Assembly: GCA_045615545.1 (NCBI GenBank)
Contig: JAZLFA010000040.1
Location: 13,667-77,666, forward strand
Source: Bacilli bacterium
Lineage (GTDB): Bacteria; Bacillota_I; Bacilli_A; RFN20; CAG-826
Direction: 5' to 3'
Length of the DNA: 64,000 bases
Part shown: piece by piece, positions 3,144-49,117 of the stretch
How positions within the stretch are numbered: position 1 is the stretch's first letter
Layout of the letters: each line of letters opens with the position of its first letter
The notes under the pieces: generated by a model
Database searches by the model: none
What the model saw: the letters and a program-made list of their open reading frames with translations, nothing else
Told to the model about the DNA's origin: nothing
Position numbers and translations under genes: made by a program

Positions 3144-4520
3144 ATGAAACCACTTAATGTAAGAGAAATTAGCTTATTAGTGAATCAAATTAACGAAAAA
3201 ATAAAAGAGAATCATATCTCTAATATCACTGTCGTTAACTCAACTGATTTTATTTTTACCTTCTCTTATTATAGAAAGGAAAAGCTTTATCTATCATTGA
3301 ATCATAATGCGCCTATTATTGGATTTATAACTGTTAAAGATAATGTTCCAACAATATTGGGTAAATATAATGAAATATTTAGAAATGAAATTAAAGATAC
3401 ATTACTTAAAGTAATAGAGACTCCATATAACGATAGAATCATTCGTTTTAAATTATCTAAAACGGATGAATTTTATGCTAAGCATGACAAATACCTTGTC
3501 TTTGAGATGATTCCACATCATCCAAACTTAATTATATTAAATGAAAACGAAGAAATTATATTTGCAACCCACTATACAGATTTAACAAGTGACCGATTAA
3601 TTGTTAAAGGAAGCAAATATGTTGCTCCAACTGCGTCATTAACAAAAAATGCGGAAGTTAGAGATAATCTTGCTATACAAATCCAAGAAACATACGACAA
3701 TTCTTTATTAATAAGAAACAAAGAAAAATTTGACGAATTAGGTGAATACATCAAACATAAAATTAAAGTAGCAGAAAAGAAAAAGTTAGTTTTACTAAAA
3801 GAAATTAAAGAAGCAGAAGAAAAGCTAGTCTATCAAGAGCACGCTAACATGCTTTTAACTTATCAATATAATCCACAAGAATTTAACAACTATCTTTTGG
3901 CCAATCACTTTCCATATGATTCATCAAAATCTAAACAAGACAACATCAATAATCTTTTTAAATTATATAAGAAAGCTAAACTAACAGTTCAAAATGATAA
4001 AGATCAAATAGCGTTAACAGAAAAAGATCTTAACGATTTATATATTGATCTAGATATTTATCAAAGTGGTGATGAAGAAAAAATCGTTCTATTAAAGAAT
4101 AAATATCCAAAATTAATTAAGACAAATAAAGCACAAGTAACCGGAAGATCAATGCCATACTATTTTGATATTGATGGAACAAGGTACGCTTATGGAAGAA
4201 ACGCAGAACAAAATGACTTCCTTACCCATAAACTCGCTAAAAAAGATTATTACTTCTTTCATATTAAGGACTTCGCGGGCGCGCATGTTATCATCATGAA
4301 ATCTAATCCATCTGATTACGAAAAAGAATTAGCGGCTGAACTAGCAATTTATGCTTCAAACAAAGATATTGGAGAAGTAACAATGTCTCAAGTTAAAGAC
4401 ATTAAAAAAGGCCATAAACCAGGCCAAGTAATTTTAGATAAATTTGAAAGCGCAATAATTAAGAAAATTGATGATCGTATAAAACAAGGATATAAAGCTT
4501 CTAATCGTTATTCTTTTTAA
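3144..4520 (+). CDS. NFACT-family protein (RqcH/FbpA-like ribosome quality control factor), short form
   Basis: 458 aa with the NFACT-R signature DFAGAHVII near the C-terminus and a coiled-coil middle region. Shorter than canonical RqcH (about 570 aa). Confidence 0.65.
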   Translation: MKPLNVREISLLVNQINEKIKENHISNITVVNSTDFIFTFSYYRKEKLYLSLNHNAPIIGFITVKDNVPTILGKYNEIFRNEIKDTLLKVIETPYNDRIIRFKLSKTDEFYAKHDKYLVFEMIPHHPNLIILNENEEIIFATHYTDLTSDRLIVKGSKYVAPTASLTKNAEVRDNLAIQIQETYDNSLLIRNKEKFDELGEYIKHKIKVAEKKKLVLLKEIKEAEEKLVYQEHANMLLTYQYNPQEFNNYLLANHFPYDSSKSKQDNINNLFKLYKKAKLTVQNDKDQIALTEKDLNDLYIDLDIYQSGDEEKIVLLKNKYPKLIKTNKAQVTGRSMPYYFDIDGTRYAYGRNAEQNDFLTHKLAKKDYYFFHIKDFAGAHVIIMKSNPSDYEKELAAELAIYASNKDIGEVTMSQVKDIKKGHKPGQVILDKFESAIIKKIDDRIKQGYKASNRYSF

Positions 4521-43519: not shown

Positions 43520-43610
43520 GGAGGAATACCCAAGAGGCTGAAGGGGCGGGCTTGGAAAGCTCGTAGGCATGTAAAAGTGTGCGAGGGTTCAAATCCCTCT
43601 TCCTCCGCCA
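43520..43610 (+). tRNA. tRNA-Ser (anticodon GGA)
   Basis: Class II tRNA with acceptor GGAGGAA/TTCCTCC, anticodon loop TTGGAAA, long variable arm, T-loop GGTTCAAATCC and encoded CCA. Confidence 0.85.
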
Positions 43611-43642
43611 TTTACAAAAAAGTTCGATGAATACGAACTTTT

Positions 43643-44917
43643 TTAATTTTTAAGACTTGTTATTGGCACTACATATACGCCATCGTTTCTTCTATAAGCA
43701 GCGTTAGTTAAACCACAAATGACGCATAGCTGCCTAGCTGGTTTGCCACCTTTTTTTTCAATATTTTTATTTAAAGCAATAAGTTTTAAAGCGGCATCAT
43801 CAATTTGATTGGCGCCTAACTTAATTTCAAATGCACACCAAGAACCATCTTCAAGTTCAATCACAGAATCAATTTCGTTATTTTCGTAATCTTGGTAATG
43901 AAATAACTTTCCTCCAAAAGACTCAGCATAAGTTAATAAATCTCTCTGAACAAGTGATTCAAACATAAATCCTAATAAGTCTAAATTATTCAACAACTTT
44001 TCATGCGATAAATTTAATAAAGCACATGGTAAAGAAGGATCAACAAAATGCCTTTTTTCGCTTTGCTTAACTCGAATAGAAGACCTAATGTTTGAAGAAA
44101 AAGGAGGTATATTTTCTAGTATATATAAATTATTAAACAAATTTAGATAATCAGTAATTGTATCAACATCAATATCATGTGAATCTTTTTCTATAATGTC
44201 TCTTTTCAAAGTTGTATTTGTCACAGTTGTACATTCGTTTCTTGCTAGAGATTTTAGAAGTAACTCAATTTTGTGTTTATCTCTTTTTATATCATCAACT
44301 TTAAAAATATCTTCATTAATTACAGATTTAATGTATTCTTTACTAACTAACATACCTCGTTTAACATCTAATTCTAGTGTTGCGGGCCACCCACCGACGA
44401 CAATACAATCGATAATATCATTTATATCTACTTCATTAAGATAAACATCTTTTGCTTTTCCATAACATATATCAAGCAAAGAAATTTCACCTTTTGATTT
44501 ACCGCTCTCATATAAAGACATTGGCCTCATTTTTAAACGAGCTATTCTGCCGGTTCCAGTATGAATGTATTTATTCTTATTTATTGTCGCAGAACCAGTT
44601 AATATAAATTGCCCTTTTCTTGGATCTGAATCAACCTTCCCTCTAACGGCATCCCAAATTAAAGGTGCTTCTTGCCATTCATCTATTAATCTAGGAAAAT
44701 TACCATCCAGTATAAGGTATGGATTCATTAAAGCTAATTTTTTATTGTTAAAATTTCCTTTTGGATCAGATAACATAACTTCGCTATTAGAATTATTTTT
44801 GCTTGTCCATGTTTTTCCACACCATTTAGGACCTTCAATTAAAATAGAAGAAAATGTTGTAAGATAGAAACTTATCTTTTCATCTATTATTCTTTGCTTG
44901 TAATTTACTAATTTCAT
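43643..44917 (-). CDS. AAA-family ATPase (AAA_14) with C-terminal DUF4143 domain (putative PD-(D/E)xK nuclease fold); paralog 1
   Basis: 424 aa. Walker A GPKWCGKT, Walker B-like LILDGNF.LIDEWQ, and C-terminal EIDSVIELEDGSWCAFEIKLG (D...ExK pattern). Confidence 0.7.
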   Translation of the reverse strand: MKLVNYKQRIIDEKISFYLTTFSSILIEGPKWCGKTWTSKNNSNSEVMLSDPKGNFNNKKLALMNPYLILDGNFPRLIDEWQEAPLIWDAVRGKVDSDPRKGQFILTGSATINKNKYIHTGTGRIARLKMRPMSLYESGKSKGEISLLDICYGKAKDVYLNEVDINDIIDCIVVGGWPATLELDVKRGMLVSKEYIKSVINEDIFKVDDIKRDKHKIELLLKSLARNECTTVTNTTLKRDIIEKDSHDIDVDTITDYLNLFNNLYILENIPPFSSNIRSSIRVKQSEKRHFVDPSLPCALLNLSHEKLLNNLDLLGFMFESLVQRDLLTYAESFGGKLFHYQDYENNEIDSVIELEDGSWCAFEIKLGANQIDDAALKLIALNKNIEKKGGKPARQLCVICGLTNAAYRRNDGVYVVPITSLKN

Positions 44918-44948
44918 TTTGCAAAACCTCTGAAATTATATTATTACA

Positions 44949-45017
44949 TTCCGATAATTTAGTCAAACTTATTCCGAGAGTTTTGATAGTTTTGTTCCGA
45001 GAGATTTAGAATATCTG
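44949..45017. repeat. Three direct copies of a TTCCGA(T/G)AG-containing 23-bp unit
   Basis: TTCCGATAA at 44949, TTCCGAGAG at 44972 and 44995. The exact 23-bp spacing lies 32-100 nt upstream of the paralog-1 start (44917). Confidence 0.4.
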
Positions 45018-45110
45018 TGTAATGGCAATGTACTGGTAACCTAAAAGTAGACACACAAAATTTATTCAGTAGACACACGAATGTTAAAATGGAAACAAGG
45101 AGGATTAAAT

Positions 45111-45449
45111 ATGTGGAGAACATATCAAGAAGAAGTAGACATTGGAAACAAAGTTTTTAATCACGTAATGACAAAAACGGAAGCAATGGAACAATTTGAT
45201 TTAACAAATAACGAGCTTACAACTTGTATTAAAAAATACATGAAAGAAAACAATATTCCAATCATACCTGAAGTGCTTAATGCTATAAGCATTGAGTTTC
45301 CAAATTACTATGATTTAAGTAAAGAGGAATTGATCAAAGAAATCATGAAAAAAGACATTGAGGTTGAACGTGCAAAAAAAGGATACACAGTGAGAGGGGG
45401 TGGAAAGACAAAGGAGTTCATTTCTATAAAAGATGCGAATATCAAATAG
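45111..45449 (+). CDS. IS3-family transposase OrfA (HTH)
   Basis: Start at MWRTYQ with AAGGAGG 7 nt upstream. Small helical DNA-binding protein immediately 5' of orfB. Confidence 0.5.
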   Translation: MWRTYQEEVDIGNKVFNHVMTKTEAMEQFDLTNNELTTCIKKYMKENNIPIIPEVLNAISIEFPNYYDLSKEELIKEIMKKDIEVERAKKGYTVRGGGKTKEFISIKDANIK

Positions 45450-45451
45450 TA

Positions 45452-46051
45452 ATGCAGCTTTCAAATAAATGGCACGTAAGAGATTTATGCGATGCGATGT
45501 CTATATCAAGATCAGGCTTCTATAAATGGAGAAAAAGAATCAACAATCCATGCAAGACTGTTAAAAAACGAATGGATGATATAATTCTCTTTGAGAAATA
45601 TCACAAGAAATATCCAAGCCACGGTTATAGATGGCTTAACGCAAAAATAAGATTAGACCTAGGTTTAGTTATGTCTGATCAATATGCACATAGATGTTGT
45701 AAATTCGCTGGAATAAAATCTCAATCAAAACATTACCAATATAAAGCGCCAGGAGAAAATAGAAGAGTCTTTGAAAACATGGTTATGTCATCCATAAAAA
45801 TGGATGGCCCATTACAAGTTGTGGTCTCAGATATGACAGCCTTCTGGGCAAATAAAACATATTGGGAATTAACTTTATATATGGATTTGTGGAATGATGA
45901 AATCATAGGCTATGGTTTATCAAGCCGAAGAGGTGATAGAAACACTTATTTCGAAGGATTAAAACAAGTTTGTGAAAAAATAAAAGGAATAGAAGGTCTT
46001 GAGTTGATTTTGCACACAGATTGGATAAGTATTGCAACAGGAATTTTTTAA
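45452..46051 (+). pseudogene. IS3-family transposase OrfB, 3'-truncated (no DDE glutamate region)
   Basis: SRSGFYKWRKR, YPSHGYRWLNAKI, VVSDMTAF (first D) and LYMDLWNDEIIGY (second D) match IS150-like OrfB. The ORF stops at 199 aa against about 280 expected. Confidence 0.65.
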
Positions 46052-46340
46052 ATATAAGTATTGCATAGCAAAAAGAGGCTAGATTTAGCCATTTTTTATT
46101 TTTTTGTCATATAATTACTATTGTTGGATTGTAAAAACTTCTCGCTTAGAACATACCGCATATATGATTCTAGCAAGCTTAAAGACCCAATCACCGACTG
46201 GTCTAGAACATAAGGAAGAAACATAGTACATCAGAAAGAAGAAATTCGTTCTCCACTACGGCATTTACATAAATTAAAAAGACTCCAAAATGAGTCTGTT
46301 GATGGCTTCGGCCATCTTTTCTTTTGCTTTTTGAGACCTT

Positions 46341-46398
46341 ACGTGTCCTAACATTTAGTCTTAAAAGTGCTTACGTGCCCTAACATTTAAGGACATTC
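46341..46398. repeat. Two adjacent copies of the 20-26 bp motif ACGTG(T/C)CCTAACATTTA(A/G) (third copy at 48023-48048)
   Basis: 46341-46360 ACGTGTCCTAACATTTAGTC. 46373-46398 ACGTGCCCTAACATTTAAGGACATTC. 48023-48048 ACGTGTCCTAACATTTAAGGACATTC. The motif contains the hairpin GTCCT-aacattta-AGGAC. Confidence 0.55.
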
Positions 46399-46426
46399 AC
46401 AAAAAAGTTCGATAAATCGGACTTTT

Positions 46427-47713
46427 TTAATTTTTTAAACAAGCAAGAGGGACTTCATAAACTCCATCTTCTCTCTTTAAAGCAGCTACTCCTTTAGTTA
46501 TAACCATTAAAAAAGCAGGTTTTCCAGTTTTTTCTTTATCAATATCGTTGGAAATTTTAATTAATTTTTTTGCTGCCTCATCAATATCTTCTTGATCAGT
46601 AAGTTTGACTTCGATTAATGCCCAACTGCCATCTCTAAATTGAATAACAGCATCTGCTTCGCGATCCATTTGATCTTTATAATGATAAACATTTGCTCCA
46701 AAAGTATCACAGTATATTCTTAAATCACGAATTGCTAATGATTCAAACAAAAATCCAAAAGTATTCATATCACTAAATAACCCTTTTGGACCAATCCCAA
46801 GTGAAGCGGCCGCAATAGAAGGATCAACAAAATGTCTAGTATTTTTTGATCTAATTGAAACTTTGCTTCTTAGATTAGGATTCCAAGCCTCCAATTCCTC
46901 TACAACATATAGTCTTTTAAGAGCAAGTAAATACTTCTCAAATGTTTTTACATCAAAAGAATTATCATTAGATGCAACATCATTTACAATGACACTATCT
47001 GCGCACTGAGATCCAATATTTCTTGAATATGAACGCATTATTTTTTTTGCTTTATTTACATCTTTTCTTATTTTAATATCTTTTAGTGAAAATAAATCCT
47101 CATTTACAACAGCATCATAAAAATCTATAACTTGTTGTAATGCAACATCTTTTTCTTGATTAATTGATAATGGCCATCCGCCACGACAAATATAATATGT
47201 GTAGTCTTCAATTGTTTTATTAGATAAACATGGTTCAAATATGCCTTCTTTTAAATTAAGTAACGAAACTTTTCCGTTACTATCTCCGCTTTCAAACAAA
47301 GACATAGGTCTCATCATTTTTCTCACAATTCTTCCTGCACCAGTATGCCTTTCGCCATTATTCTTTGAAATGGTTTTATCGGTAATACTTCCTGTTAATA
47401 TAAATTGTCCAAAAGATCCGCTCTTATCAACTTGGTCTTTTATAGAATTCCAAATAAAAGATATTTCCTGCCATTCGTCTATCATAAGTGGTTTTTCACC
47501 TTGTTGCAAAAAAATAGTTGGCGAAGCTTTTGCCAAATCAATATATTGTTGTTTTGTTTCTTCTATTGTTAAATCGATAATAGTTTTTGCTTGTCTAGCT
47601 GAAGTTGTTGATTTGCCACACCATTTAGGGCCAACCACCAATACAGCTCCTTTTGATTTAAGCGAAAATCTTAACGTTTCATCAAACAATCTTGGTATAT
47701 AATTTTTTTCCAT
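46427..47713 (-). CDS. AAA-family ATPase (AAA_14) with C-terminal DUF4143 domain; paralog 2
   Basis: 428 aa. Walker A GPKWCGKS, MIDEWQ, and C-terminal EADAVIQFRDGSWALIEVKLT. About 40-45% identical to paralog 1 by eye. Confidence 0.7.
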   Translation of the reverse strand: MEKNYIPRLFDETLRFSLKSKGAVLVVGPKWCGKSTTSARQAKTIIDLTIEETKQQYIDLAKASPTIFLQQGEKPLMIDEWQEISFIWNSIKDQVDKSGSFGQFILTGSITDKTISKNNGERHTGAGRIVRKMMRPMSLFESGDSNGKVSLLNLKEGIFEPCLSNKTIEDYTYYICRGGWPLSINQEKDVALQQVIDFYDAVVNEDLFSLKDIKIRKDVNKAKKIMRSYSRNIGSQCADSVIVNDVASNDNSFDVKTFEKYLLALKRLYVVEELEAWNPNLRSKVSIRSKNTRHFVDPSIAAASLGIGPKGLFSDMNTFGFLFESLAIRDLRIYCDTFGANVYHYKDQMDREADAVIQFRDGSWALIEVKLTDQEDIDEAAKKLIKISNDIDKEKTGKPAFLMVITKGVAALKREDGVYEVPLACLKN

Positions 47714-47766
47714 ATTAAATTATCCTCAAAGGTATGATACATCATTAATAAATTAATGTAAATACT

Positions 47767-47832
47767 AAATCCCAAAAATGTAAGTAAATAAATCCCAGAA
47801 ATGTAAGTAAATAAATCCCAAAAATATAAAAT
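47767..47832. repeat. 23-bp tandem direct repeat, 2.8 copies (AAATCCCARAAATGTAAGTAAAT)
   Basis: Units at 47767, 47790 and 47813, the last degenerate. They sit between the HTH mini-gene stop and the paralog-2 start. Confidence 0.65.
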
Positions 47833-47945
47833 TACTTAATATGTTTTATAGCACCATTGATTTTTTTAGATGAACAATAATTACGTGCAGTTCTTTCTGA
47901 GATATTCCATTTTTCTGAATATTTTTTAACTGATATAAATTTCAT
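47832..47945 (-). CDS. 37-aa helix-turn-helix protein (AlpA/excisionase-like HTH_17), absent from the ORF track
   Basis: The minus-strand frame translates to MKFISVKKYSEKWNISERTARNYCSSKKINGAIKHIK. ISERTARNY is a typical phage Xis/AlpA recognition-helix motif. Confidence 0.4.
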   Translation of the reverse strand: MKFISVKKYSEKWNISERTARNYCSSKKINGAIKHIK

Positions 47946-48214
47946 GCTTTGGTAATACCATCAGACGGCAAGAAGTTCAATACTTTAATAAAGTTTTATT
48001 TTTTATGCCGTTTACAATTCATACGTGTCCTAACATTTAAGGACATTCTTGATTGCAAATACACATGAAATGTCGTGTGTATTTTTATTTTGTAATATTA
48101 ATGAAATTTGCTTGCAAATAAATGACTTATTAATATTATTTGTTGCTTTTTATCGCAAAGACTATCAAAAAGAGGCATAATTATATTATGCTAATCAAAA
48201 AGGAAGTTAAATGA

Positions 48215-49117
48215 ATGACTAATTATAAAATCATTACCGATAGTTCCAGTGATATTCCAACTGACATAAGAGAAAAACACGGAATTGACTATTTTCAAAT
48301 GGGTATTGTCGTAGATGGCGAACAAATGCCAGCGGATTTAGATTGGAAAACATATACTCCAGATGAACTATATGGTTGGTTATCTGCAGGAAGAAAATTA
48401 AAAACAAACCTTATTACAGTAGAAACATTTATTAATAAAATTAAGCAATACTTTGAAAAGGGTATCGATGTTTTATATCTTGGTTGCTCAACCGCATTAA
48501 CCGGATCATTAAACAGTTTTAATTTAGCAAAAGAAATATTAATGGAAGAATATCCTTCTAGAAGAATGGAAGCAGTACAAACTTATGCTGCAGCAGCAAC
48601 ATTAGGTATGTTAGTTGTGGATGCAGCAAGAGAGCAAGAAAAGGGCGCTGATATCGACACCGTTATGAAATGGGTTGAAGATCATCGTTTCTTCTATAAC
48701 CAATTCTGCACAGTTGATACATTAACTTTCTTAAAAGATGCTGGAAGAATTAAAGGCACAGCTGCTTTCTTCGGAAATATTGTTGGTGTTAAACCTGTCT
48801 TTATTTCGGATCGAAAAGGAAATAATCTTGTTATCGAAAAACTTAGAGGTACAAAAGCGAGTTTGAATGCTATATATCAACATATTATGGATGTAATTGA
48901 TCTCAATCACGCATCTAGAGTTGTTATTGCTCATTCCGGAGTAAGTGATCGCGCTGAATTGTTAAAAGCGCGTTTCTTGGAAGCTGGAATAAAAGAAGTA
49001 ATTATTGTTCCACTTGGACCAATTATTGGAATTACTTGTGGGCCAGGCACAATATCAACCTTCTGTTATGGTAAAGAAGTTACCAGATACGAAGGCGACG
49101 GAATTAGTGTTAAATAG
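48215..49117 (+). CDS. DegV-family fatty-acid-binding protein
   Basis: 300 aa. N-terminus YKIITDSSSDIP and the DegV fold pattern. Confidence 0.85.
   Translation: MTNYKIITDSSSDIPTDIREKHGIDYFQMGIVVDGEQMPADLDWKTYTPDELYGWLSAGRKLKTNLITVETFINKIKQYFEKGIDVLYLGCSTALTGSLNSFNLAKEILMEEYPSRRMEAVQTYAAAATLGMLVVDAAREQEKGADIDTVMKWVEDHRFFYNQFCTVDTLTFLKDAGRIKGTAAFFGNIVGVKPVFISDRKGNNLVIEKLRGTKASLNAIYQHIMDVIDLNHASRVVIAHSGVSDRAELLKARFLEAGIKEVIIVPLGPIIGITCGPGTISTFCYGKEVTRYEGDGISVK

Follow-up and report, generated by a model that had tools for sequence, protein, structure and literature searches.

A 37-codon open reading frame beside a PDC-S01 ATPase cassette is probably the 5′ remnant of an HTH_17–Fic gene

Results

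Gene content of the segment adjoining tRNA-Ser(GGA)

We analyzed a 64-kb stretch of DNA, henceforth referred to as the window. The features of interest lie in a segment (43611-48214) with tRNA-Ser(GGA) (43520-43610) on one side and a DegV gene, which starts at 48215, on the other. This segment contains two ATPase paralogues, a truncated IS3-family element between them, and a short open reading frame (ORF) next to the second paralogue (Table 1). Housekeeping genes (NAD kinase, CYTH, ArsC, TrpRS and pseudouridine synthase) lie beyond the segment. The IS3-family remnant (45081-46051, plus strand) retains an orfA-like frame of 122 aa together with part of orfB; this 199-aa fragment spans positions 97-282 of the IS3 transposase profile, which has 369 positions.

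Both ATPases have the Pfam domains AAA_14 and DUF4143 and match the PADLOC candidate defence gene PDC-S01 (E = 1.5e-59 for paralogue 1 and the value in Table 1 for paralogue 2). PDC-S01 is an ATPase fused to a PD-(D/E)XK domain (PMC12988326, PMC3424549); it is a very common candidate defence gene with a predicted anti-phage function (PMC12988326). The gene content at this location differs among related genomes. In L001, the same site beside tRNA-Ser and pseudouridine synthase contains an ATPase orthologue and a TOTE-type primase-helicase, and the island in L002 encodes an ADP-ribosyltransferase, an ATPase_2/DUF234 protein, an ATPase, a SoFic-like Fic protein and a trypsin-like peptidase. On sequence grounds, the locus is a variable defence island adjoining tRNA-Ser(GGA).

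A dispersed intergenic repeat, TGTCCTTAAATGTTAGGACACGTA, borders the region of the short ORF and recurs past the 3′ end of the ATPase gene (46372-46395; 2 matches against 0 expected). L001, L002, L009 and L011 have copies as well. Written as (G)TCCTTAAATGTTAGGACACGTA, the repeat is often present as a tandem pair: it is found in the window at 48022-48045, 46372-46395 and 46340-46362, in L001 at 444-546, 1324-1473 and 3702-3769, in L009 at ~770-830 and in L011 at 1-55. It lies at several rearrangement borders, and in the window it flanks the segment formed by the short ORF and the ATPase on both sides. An Rfam search of 46000-48300 gave no match, so this hairpin or REP-like element is not a known RNA family. 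A separate terminator-like hairpin (48057-48084, plus strand), with a 12-bp stem and a T-run, lies between the upstream region of the short ORF and the DegV promoter; conserved counterparts precede the ATPase cassettes of L001 and L002.

Table 1. Positions in the window of the short ORF, its upstream elements and the ATPase features
Feature	Position	Strand	Basis or remark
37-codon ORF, probable 5′ stump of an HTH_17–Fic gene	47832..47945	minus	Translation, HTH_17 match, phmmer, tblastn
Codons 1-35, part homologous to HTH–Fic N-termini	47841..47945	minus	DNA alignment with L009, L011 and L012
Junction: codons 36-37 and TAA stop	47832..47840	minus	Sequence in common with left edge of ATPase cassette
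Conserved 5′ region of the probable stump	47946..48011	minus	Aligns with upstream regions of L009 and L011
ACGGCA	48006-48011	minus	CGGCA at -65
-35-like TTGAAC	47975-47980	minus	
TTGCCG	47966-47971	minus	At -26, between -35-like and -10-like elements
Extended -10-like TGnTATTAC	47952-47960	minus	
Dispersed intergenic repeat TGTCCTTAAATGTTAGGACACGTA	48022..48045	minus	Borders the region of the probable stump
ATPase paralogue 2, AAA_14/DUF4143 (PADLOC PDC-S01 candidate defence gene)	46427..47713	minus	Pfam; PADLOC E = 4e-55
ATPase paralogue 1	43643-44917		
Three 23-bp direct repeats of the ATPase cassette, core TTGGGATTTA	47755..47834	minus	
ATPase promoter-like site TTTACA-17-TATCAT	47734..47762	minus	
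GAGGA after the ATPase promoter-like site	47723-47727	minus	

The 37-codon ORF matches part of an HTH_17 domain

The first-pass annotation had described an uncalled short minus-strand frame of 37 codons that is co-directional with paralogue 2 and whose stop codon touches an array of 23-bp repeats. All of this was borne out. The frame translates as MKFISVKKYSEKWNISERTARNYCSSKKINGAIKHIK (37 aa), it runs in the same direction as the AAA_14/DUF4143 ATPase, and its stop codon (47832-47834) overlaps the outermost, degenerate repeat copy.

The same annotation had read the peptide as a Xis/AlpA-like helix-turn-helix (HTH) mini-regulator and had proposed a profile search. Pfam HTH_17 (PF12728) matched residues 5-34 with 17.1 bits (E = 0.0067), below the curated gathering cut-off of 27 bits and over positions 3-31 of the 51 in the profile. 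The cut-off was passed by three relatives of the ORF, P0151 (30.0), P0002 (28.1) and P0014 (33.5). The ORF covers only the N-terminal ~60% of the domain and lacks the wing (G-x-W-x-IP, or GGxWxIP in close relatives; profile positions ~32-51). The assignment to the HTH_17/excisionase-type superfamily stands, whereas the idea of an intact mini-regulator fails on the missing wing and on the nearest relatives, which are the N-termini of Fic proteins. Matches to TIGR01764 and to PHROG excisionase profiles had E-values of 0.01-0.06. Phage sequences gave five matches with at most 54% identity, of which only one is annotated as an excisionase (39% identity); the gene at the second-best match is annotated “Huntingtin interacting protein E-like”, which is a name of the Fic type (HYPE/FICD).

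We searched 1.84 billion cluster representatives with phmmer and retrieved 177 matches to the ORF at E ≤ 1e-3. Nearly all of them align residues 1-33 of the query with residues 1-33 of a longer protein. The top single-domain match is P0002 (74 aa, 76% identity, E = 3.8e-10). A word-indexed homologue search with the ORF padded to 42 aa returned no match, and products identical to those of the ORF, the ATPase or DegV were not found in the collection of called genes. Codons 1-32 are free of stops and frameshifts, and neither the start codon nor the upstream motifs are disrupted. Over these codons, most substitutions relative to the closest DNA relatives are synonymous (dN/dS = 0.09-0.11, dS 0.6-0.9). 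The branch leading to the window carries ~3 non-synonymous and ~3 synonymous changes, a number too small for a selection test. Judging from the 177 phmmer matches and the codon-level conservation (dN/dS ~0.1), the ORF is not a chance frame.

The closest relatives are HTH_17–Fic proteins and short HTH-only proteins

The closest relatives are P0151 (78 aa), P0002 (74 aa), P0013 (72 aa) and P0014 (194 aa), and the short HTH-only ones among them come from low-GC Bacilli metagenomes. P0151, P0002 and P0013 are the nearest sequences to the ORF, with 76-78% identity. Where the window ORF ends, P0151, P0002 and P0014 continue with GAYQNGGCWFIPEDA. In the alignment, the closest relatives run on past “…KKIxGA” into “YQNGGCWFIPEDA”, the segment that corresponds to the wing of an excisionase/MerR-type winged helix; P0002 departs after “CWFI”. 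The AlphaFold2 model of P0151 was built from a 4-sequence alignment (pLDDT 52.8) and was used for the order of secondary-structure elements only. With low confidence, this order is beta 3-5, alpha 6-13, alpha 17-26, beta 33-34 and beta 37-39. The window peptide departs from its relatives at residue 33 and ends at residue 37. Because the wing strands at residues 33-34 and 37-39 of P0151 lie past this divergence point, the last strand, together with the conserved W-x-IP, is missing from the window peptide.

A metagenome scan with an alignment of the close relatives yielded 444 confirmed relatives, and the best 80 of the 444 were examined. Among these 80, 74 of the 75 complete ORFs encode 250-349 aa, and 75 of the 80 have the Fic motif HPFx[D/E]GNGR. 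The two representatives that were scanned (L013 and L018) contain Pfam Fic as well as HTH_17 and match the PADLOC candidate defence system PDC-S04 (E = 2e-112). The core of the L013 protein resembles a Clostridioides difficile Fic protein (PDB 4X2C/4X2E). P0014 shares the sub-branch of the ORF itself (SSxKI…AYQxGGxWFIPEDA) and extends into the beginning of the Fic region, with the SNHIEGS inhibitory motif included.

When six full-length Fic proteins were used as tblastn queries, the match was confined to 47945-47847 of the window, with 61-75% identity over residues 1-32/33 (E from 1e-8 to 4e-11). These searches gave nothing past residue 33, neither the Fic core nor a 3′ fragment, anywhere in the 64-kb window. 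By these alignments, the homologue of the ORF in HTH–Fic proteins is their N-terminal DNA-binding domain. A search of one literature collection for the HTH–Fic architecture found no account of it.

Motifs upstream of the ORF are those of HTH–Fic genes

Among the best 80 of the 444 relatives, upstream sequence was compared at 78 HTH–Fic loci. TTGCCG is present within 100 nt upstream of the ATG at 77 of these, and at least two TTGCCG and a CGGCAA are present upstream at 62 of the 78. Typically, a palindrome, TTGCCGnTATCGGCAA, is found ~60-70 nt upstream and a proximal CTTGCCGATAG directly precedes the ATG; both are strongly conserved in the 100 nt upstream of the start in loci L013-L092. The palindrome and the proximal motif probably form an autoregulatory operator, and TTGCCG/CGGCAA would be the putative cognate operator of this HTH–Fic family of HTH domains. 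The upstream TTGCCG/CGGCAA signature of the HTH_17–Fic family was also found at the window ORF, and it is absent from the 23-bp repeats of the window.

No Shine-Dalgarno sequence precedes the ATG in the window, L009 or L011. In the window, 6 nt separate the -10-like element from the ATG, so the transcript could be leaderless. The -10-like hexamer is poor, with a C at the last position, and the site was not called by the promoter scan.

Similarity to HTH relatives ends where the ATPase cassette begins

The similarity of the ORF to its HTH relatives is clear up to codon 32 (47850), weak over codons 33-35 and lost past 47841. We approached the same point from the other side by aligning the ATPase cassettes. 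Starting from the ATPase stop at 46427, blastn similarity extends up to 47835/47838 (L001/L002) and 47829 (L007). The four-way alignment of the window, L001, L002 and L007 has no conservation upstream of ~47836, and in it L001 has GGTAATTTT where the window has AAGTAATTTT. Since cassette similarity begins at ~47836-47838 and L001 has GGTAATTTT, the last two codons of the ORF and its TAA lie in cassette-side sequence. A tblastn search with the ORF peptide in eight related ATPase loci gave no match with E below 10; the ORF is thus present in none of the eight.

The 23-bp repeats accompany the ATPase genes

Three direct repeats with an exact 23-bp spacing lie upstream of all ten ATPase genes, namely the two window paralogues and those of L001-L008. 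They are located at 47755-47834 and ~44955-45006 in the window and ~60-140 nt upstream of the ATPase starts in L001-L008. For the tandem array at paralogue 2, TRF reported 47755-47829 with 3.3 copies and a separate repeat search reported 47766-47834; the L006 array has four repeats, one of them degenerate. The cores lie at a near-fixed distance from the ATPase ATG, at about -108, -85 and -62, or at -83, -60 and -37 in the case of paralogue 1.

The sequence of the core varies among the genes. Paralogue 2 shares TTGGGATTTA with L001, L002 and L007, whose orthologues are 89%, 87% and 89% identical to it at the amino-acid level, respectively. The core is AGCCAAA…TTGTAT in L003, L004 and L006, GCCA…TTGGTAT in L005, CGCCAAATTGCC in L008 and TCGGAA in window paralogue 1. 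Given their presence at 10 of 10 ATPase genes and the lack of the ORF at all eight related loci, the repeats, as judged by this distribution, belong to the ATPase and are independent of the HTH ORF. These clade-specific repeats look like an operator that co-evolves with the ATPase. A TATTAT-like -10 element and the GAGGA are kept in L001, L002 and L007 in the four-way alignment.

The repeats, promoter and ATPase form a unit with sharp similarity borders, one a little ahead of the first repeat and the other at the stop codon (the unit spans 46427-47838 in the window, 3879-5287 in L001, 3877-5287 in L002 and 516-1602 in L007). The flanks of the unit differ in each genome, as in a swappable cassette. 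In L007, two copies of the operator-like ATACTCGACAA, which is typical of the L009-type ATPase, lie upstream of a paralogue-2-type cassette. Both window paralogues are followed by a near-identical, terminator-like hairpin, AAAAAGT(C/T)CG…CGAACTTTTTTGT(G/A)AATG (46396-46426 and 43611-43642), which suggests that the 3′ flank is shared or has been copied between them.

Short HTH-only genes end at different breakpoints

We examined where other short relatives depart from the HTH–Fic sequence. P0151 (L009/L010) is cut at ~residue 57 by the dispersed repeat and is followed by a different PDC-S01 ATPase. P0002 (L011) diverges at ~residue 41, and P0152 ends at residue 116 with IS21-family genes directly downstream. 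Because the tails of the short relatives differ from one another after residues 41-57, these proteins appear to be independent truncations at other breakpoints. Of four distinct close-relative loci, two (those of the window and L009/L010) have a co-directional PDC-S01 ATPase directly downstream. The ATPase of L009 has other repeats (ATAYGCTCGACAA) and is set apart from the HTH gene by a repeat element. A similarity of P0151 to Fic proteins that extends up to residue 81 was rejected as homology: its last ~25 residues are ~10% identical (an estimate) and are encoded by the dispersed repeat.

Discussion

A gene remnant joined to an ATPase cassette

The ORF probably represents the remaining 5′ end of an HTH_17–Fic (PDC-S04-like) gene that became joined at ~47836-47841 to a PDC-S01 ATPase cassette. 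The stump would comprise ~codons 1-35 of the Fic gene, with the family's own 5′ region kept. The cassette to which it would have been joined at 47836-47841 is self-contained, with three 23-bp repeats, a promoter and the AAA_14/DUF4143 ATPase, and its side of the junction would supply the last two codons and the stop of the ORF. The island next to tRNA-Ser(GGA) may be a site of exchange for such cassettes. The truncating event could have been an insertion, a replacement or a deletion; we infer it rather than reconstruct it because an intact HTH–Fic gene at exactly this site was not found in any genome, nor a Fic 3′ fragment in the window. As the last wing strand with W-x-IP is missing, the peptide is most likely non-functional as a DNA binder. 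On this reading, the ORF is an ordinary gene remnant, not a new regulator.

Could the stump nevertheless have been kept because it is useful? The peptide might occupy the TTGCCG operator or interfere with an intact paralogue, or the additional promoter might drive the ATPase cassette. The intact start codon, upstream motifs and frame and the low dN/dS speak for such a role, as does the minus strand between the ORF and the ATPase, on which no terminator-like site was detected. For this last reason, transcription from the stump promoter, if it fires, would continue across the repeats into the ATPase gene. However, there is no Shine-Dalgarno sequence, the -10-like hexamer ends in C and escaped the promoter scan, the wing strand is missing, and the ATPase has its own conserved promoter. 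An intact frame with a dN/dS of 0.09-0.11 may reflect either a recent truncation or residual constraint. The data fit both, and a recent truncation explains the low dN/dS equally well. We therefore regard retention for a useful function as unlikely.

A more specific proposal, that the PDC-S01 ATPase cassette has recruited the truncated HTH stump and its promoter for upstream control, seems to us doubtful in the extreme, and the occurrence of a stump followed by a PDC-S01 ATPase at two loci leaves a small chance of a functional link. If co-option were true, it could involve a read-through promoter derepressed by the loss of autorepression, or a mini-peptide with residual DNA binding. The arrangement in the window and in L009/L010 would then mark a preferred docking site for cassettes, not a coincidence.

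The first-pass annotation had suggested a module of regulator, binding site and effector, in which a functional Xis/AlpA-like mini-HTH binds the 23-bp repeats and controls the ATPase. The ORF does abut the repeats in the same direction as the ATPase, and a PDC-S01 ATPase likewise follows the 78-aa relative in L009/L010. HTH proteins of the Xis/BldC type are able to bind direct repeats in head-to-tail fashion. Against the module, the repeats occur at 10 of 10 ATPase genes whereas the ORF is missing from 8 of 8 related loci, and an AAA_14/DUF4143 ATPase lies within 3.5 kb at none of the 80 HTH–Fic loci (best 80 of 444). The family motif TTGCCG/CGGCAA lies upstream of the ORF and is absent from the repeats, the peptide has no wing, and at L009 the ATPase has different repeats, with a repeat element between it and the HTH gene. 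We find the module very improbable and do not retain it.

No more credible is the other option raised in that annotation, here taken as the ORF being what is left of an excisionase from an integrative element that had integrated at tRNA-Ser and has since lost its integrase. The island is directly beside tRNA-Ser(GGA), an IS3 remnant is nearby, and the fold class is common with excisionases. Yet an integrase, a Fic remnant and a duplicated tRNA end were all looked for nearby and none was found: the scanned neighbour ORFs contain no integrase domain, and 43611-49000 contains no att-type repeat of at least 10 nt of the tRNA-Ser 3′ end. Nor did the data include a related genome in which an integrase and att sites surround the corresponding segment. 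Neither a partnership with an integrase and att sites nor annotated excisionases as closest homologues could be recognized; the closest homologues are Fic N-termini (60-75% identity), and the only excisionase-annotated phage match is 39% identical. A chance ORF in AT-rich intergenic DNA, which would fit the short length, the missing Shine-Dalgarno sequence and the lack of an identical product in the collection of called genes, can be dismissed in view of the 177 phmmer matches among 1.84 billion sequences (E = 3.8e-10) and a dN/dS of ~0.1.

If the ORF is a gene remnant, the frame should be annotated as a pseudogene fragment, from a truncated HTH_17–Fic (PDC-S04-like) gene, instead of a new Xis/AlpA-type regulator, and the 23-bp repeats should be assigned to the ATPase gene. 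The locus would then illustrate gene turnover in a defence island beside tRNA-Ser, with a PDC-S01 ATPase cassette taking the place of a Fic-type gene. Of greater biological interest is a neighbouring feature, the conserved architecture of three repeats with 23-bp spacing and clade-specific sequence upstream of PDC-S01 ATPases.

Comparison with known systems

Like phage and ICE excisionases and AlpA (HTH_17, TIGR01764), the ORF belongs to the same HTH superfamily, with a beta1-alpha1-alpha2 layout and a SERT-R-Y recognition helix. Unlike phage and ICE excisionases, it is below the threshold of the HTH_17 and TIGR01764 models and no integrase partner was found in the scanned neighbour ORFs. The short HTH-only relatives are closer. 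P0151 and P0002 have the upstream region of the window, and a PDC-S01 ATPase also follows P0151, whereas these relatives keep all or most of the wing (GGCWFIPEDA; P0002 departs after CWFI). The HTH_17–Fic proteins are ~295 aa long and match PDC-S04; their N-terminal winged helix is Xis/MerR-like, and a class II Fic AMP-transferase domain comes after it. The window ORF is homologous to them over residues 1-32, and its upstream TTGCCG/CGGCA motifs and their layout match the family. In contrast to the full-length proteins, the window copy is without the wing, the linker, the SNxIEGS inhibitory helix and the HPFx[D/E]GNGR core, and it would be a remnant, non-working member of the family.
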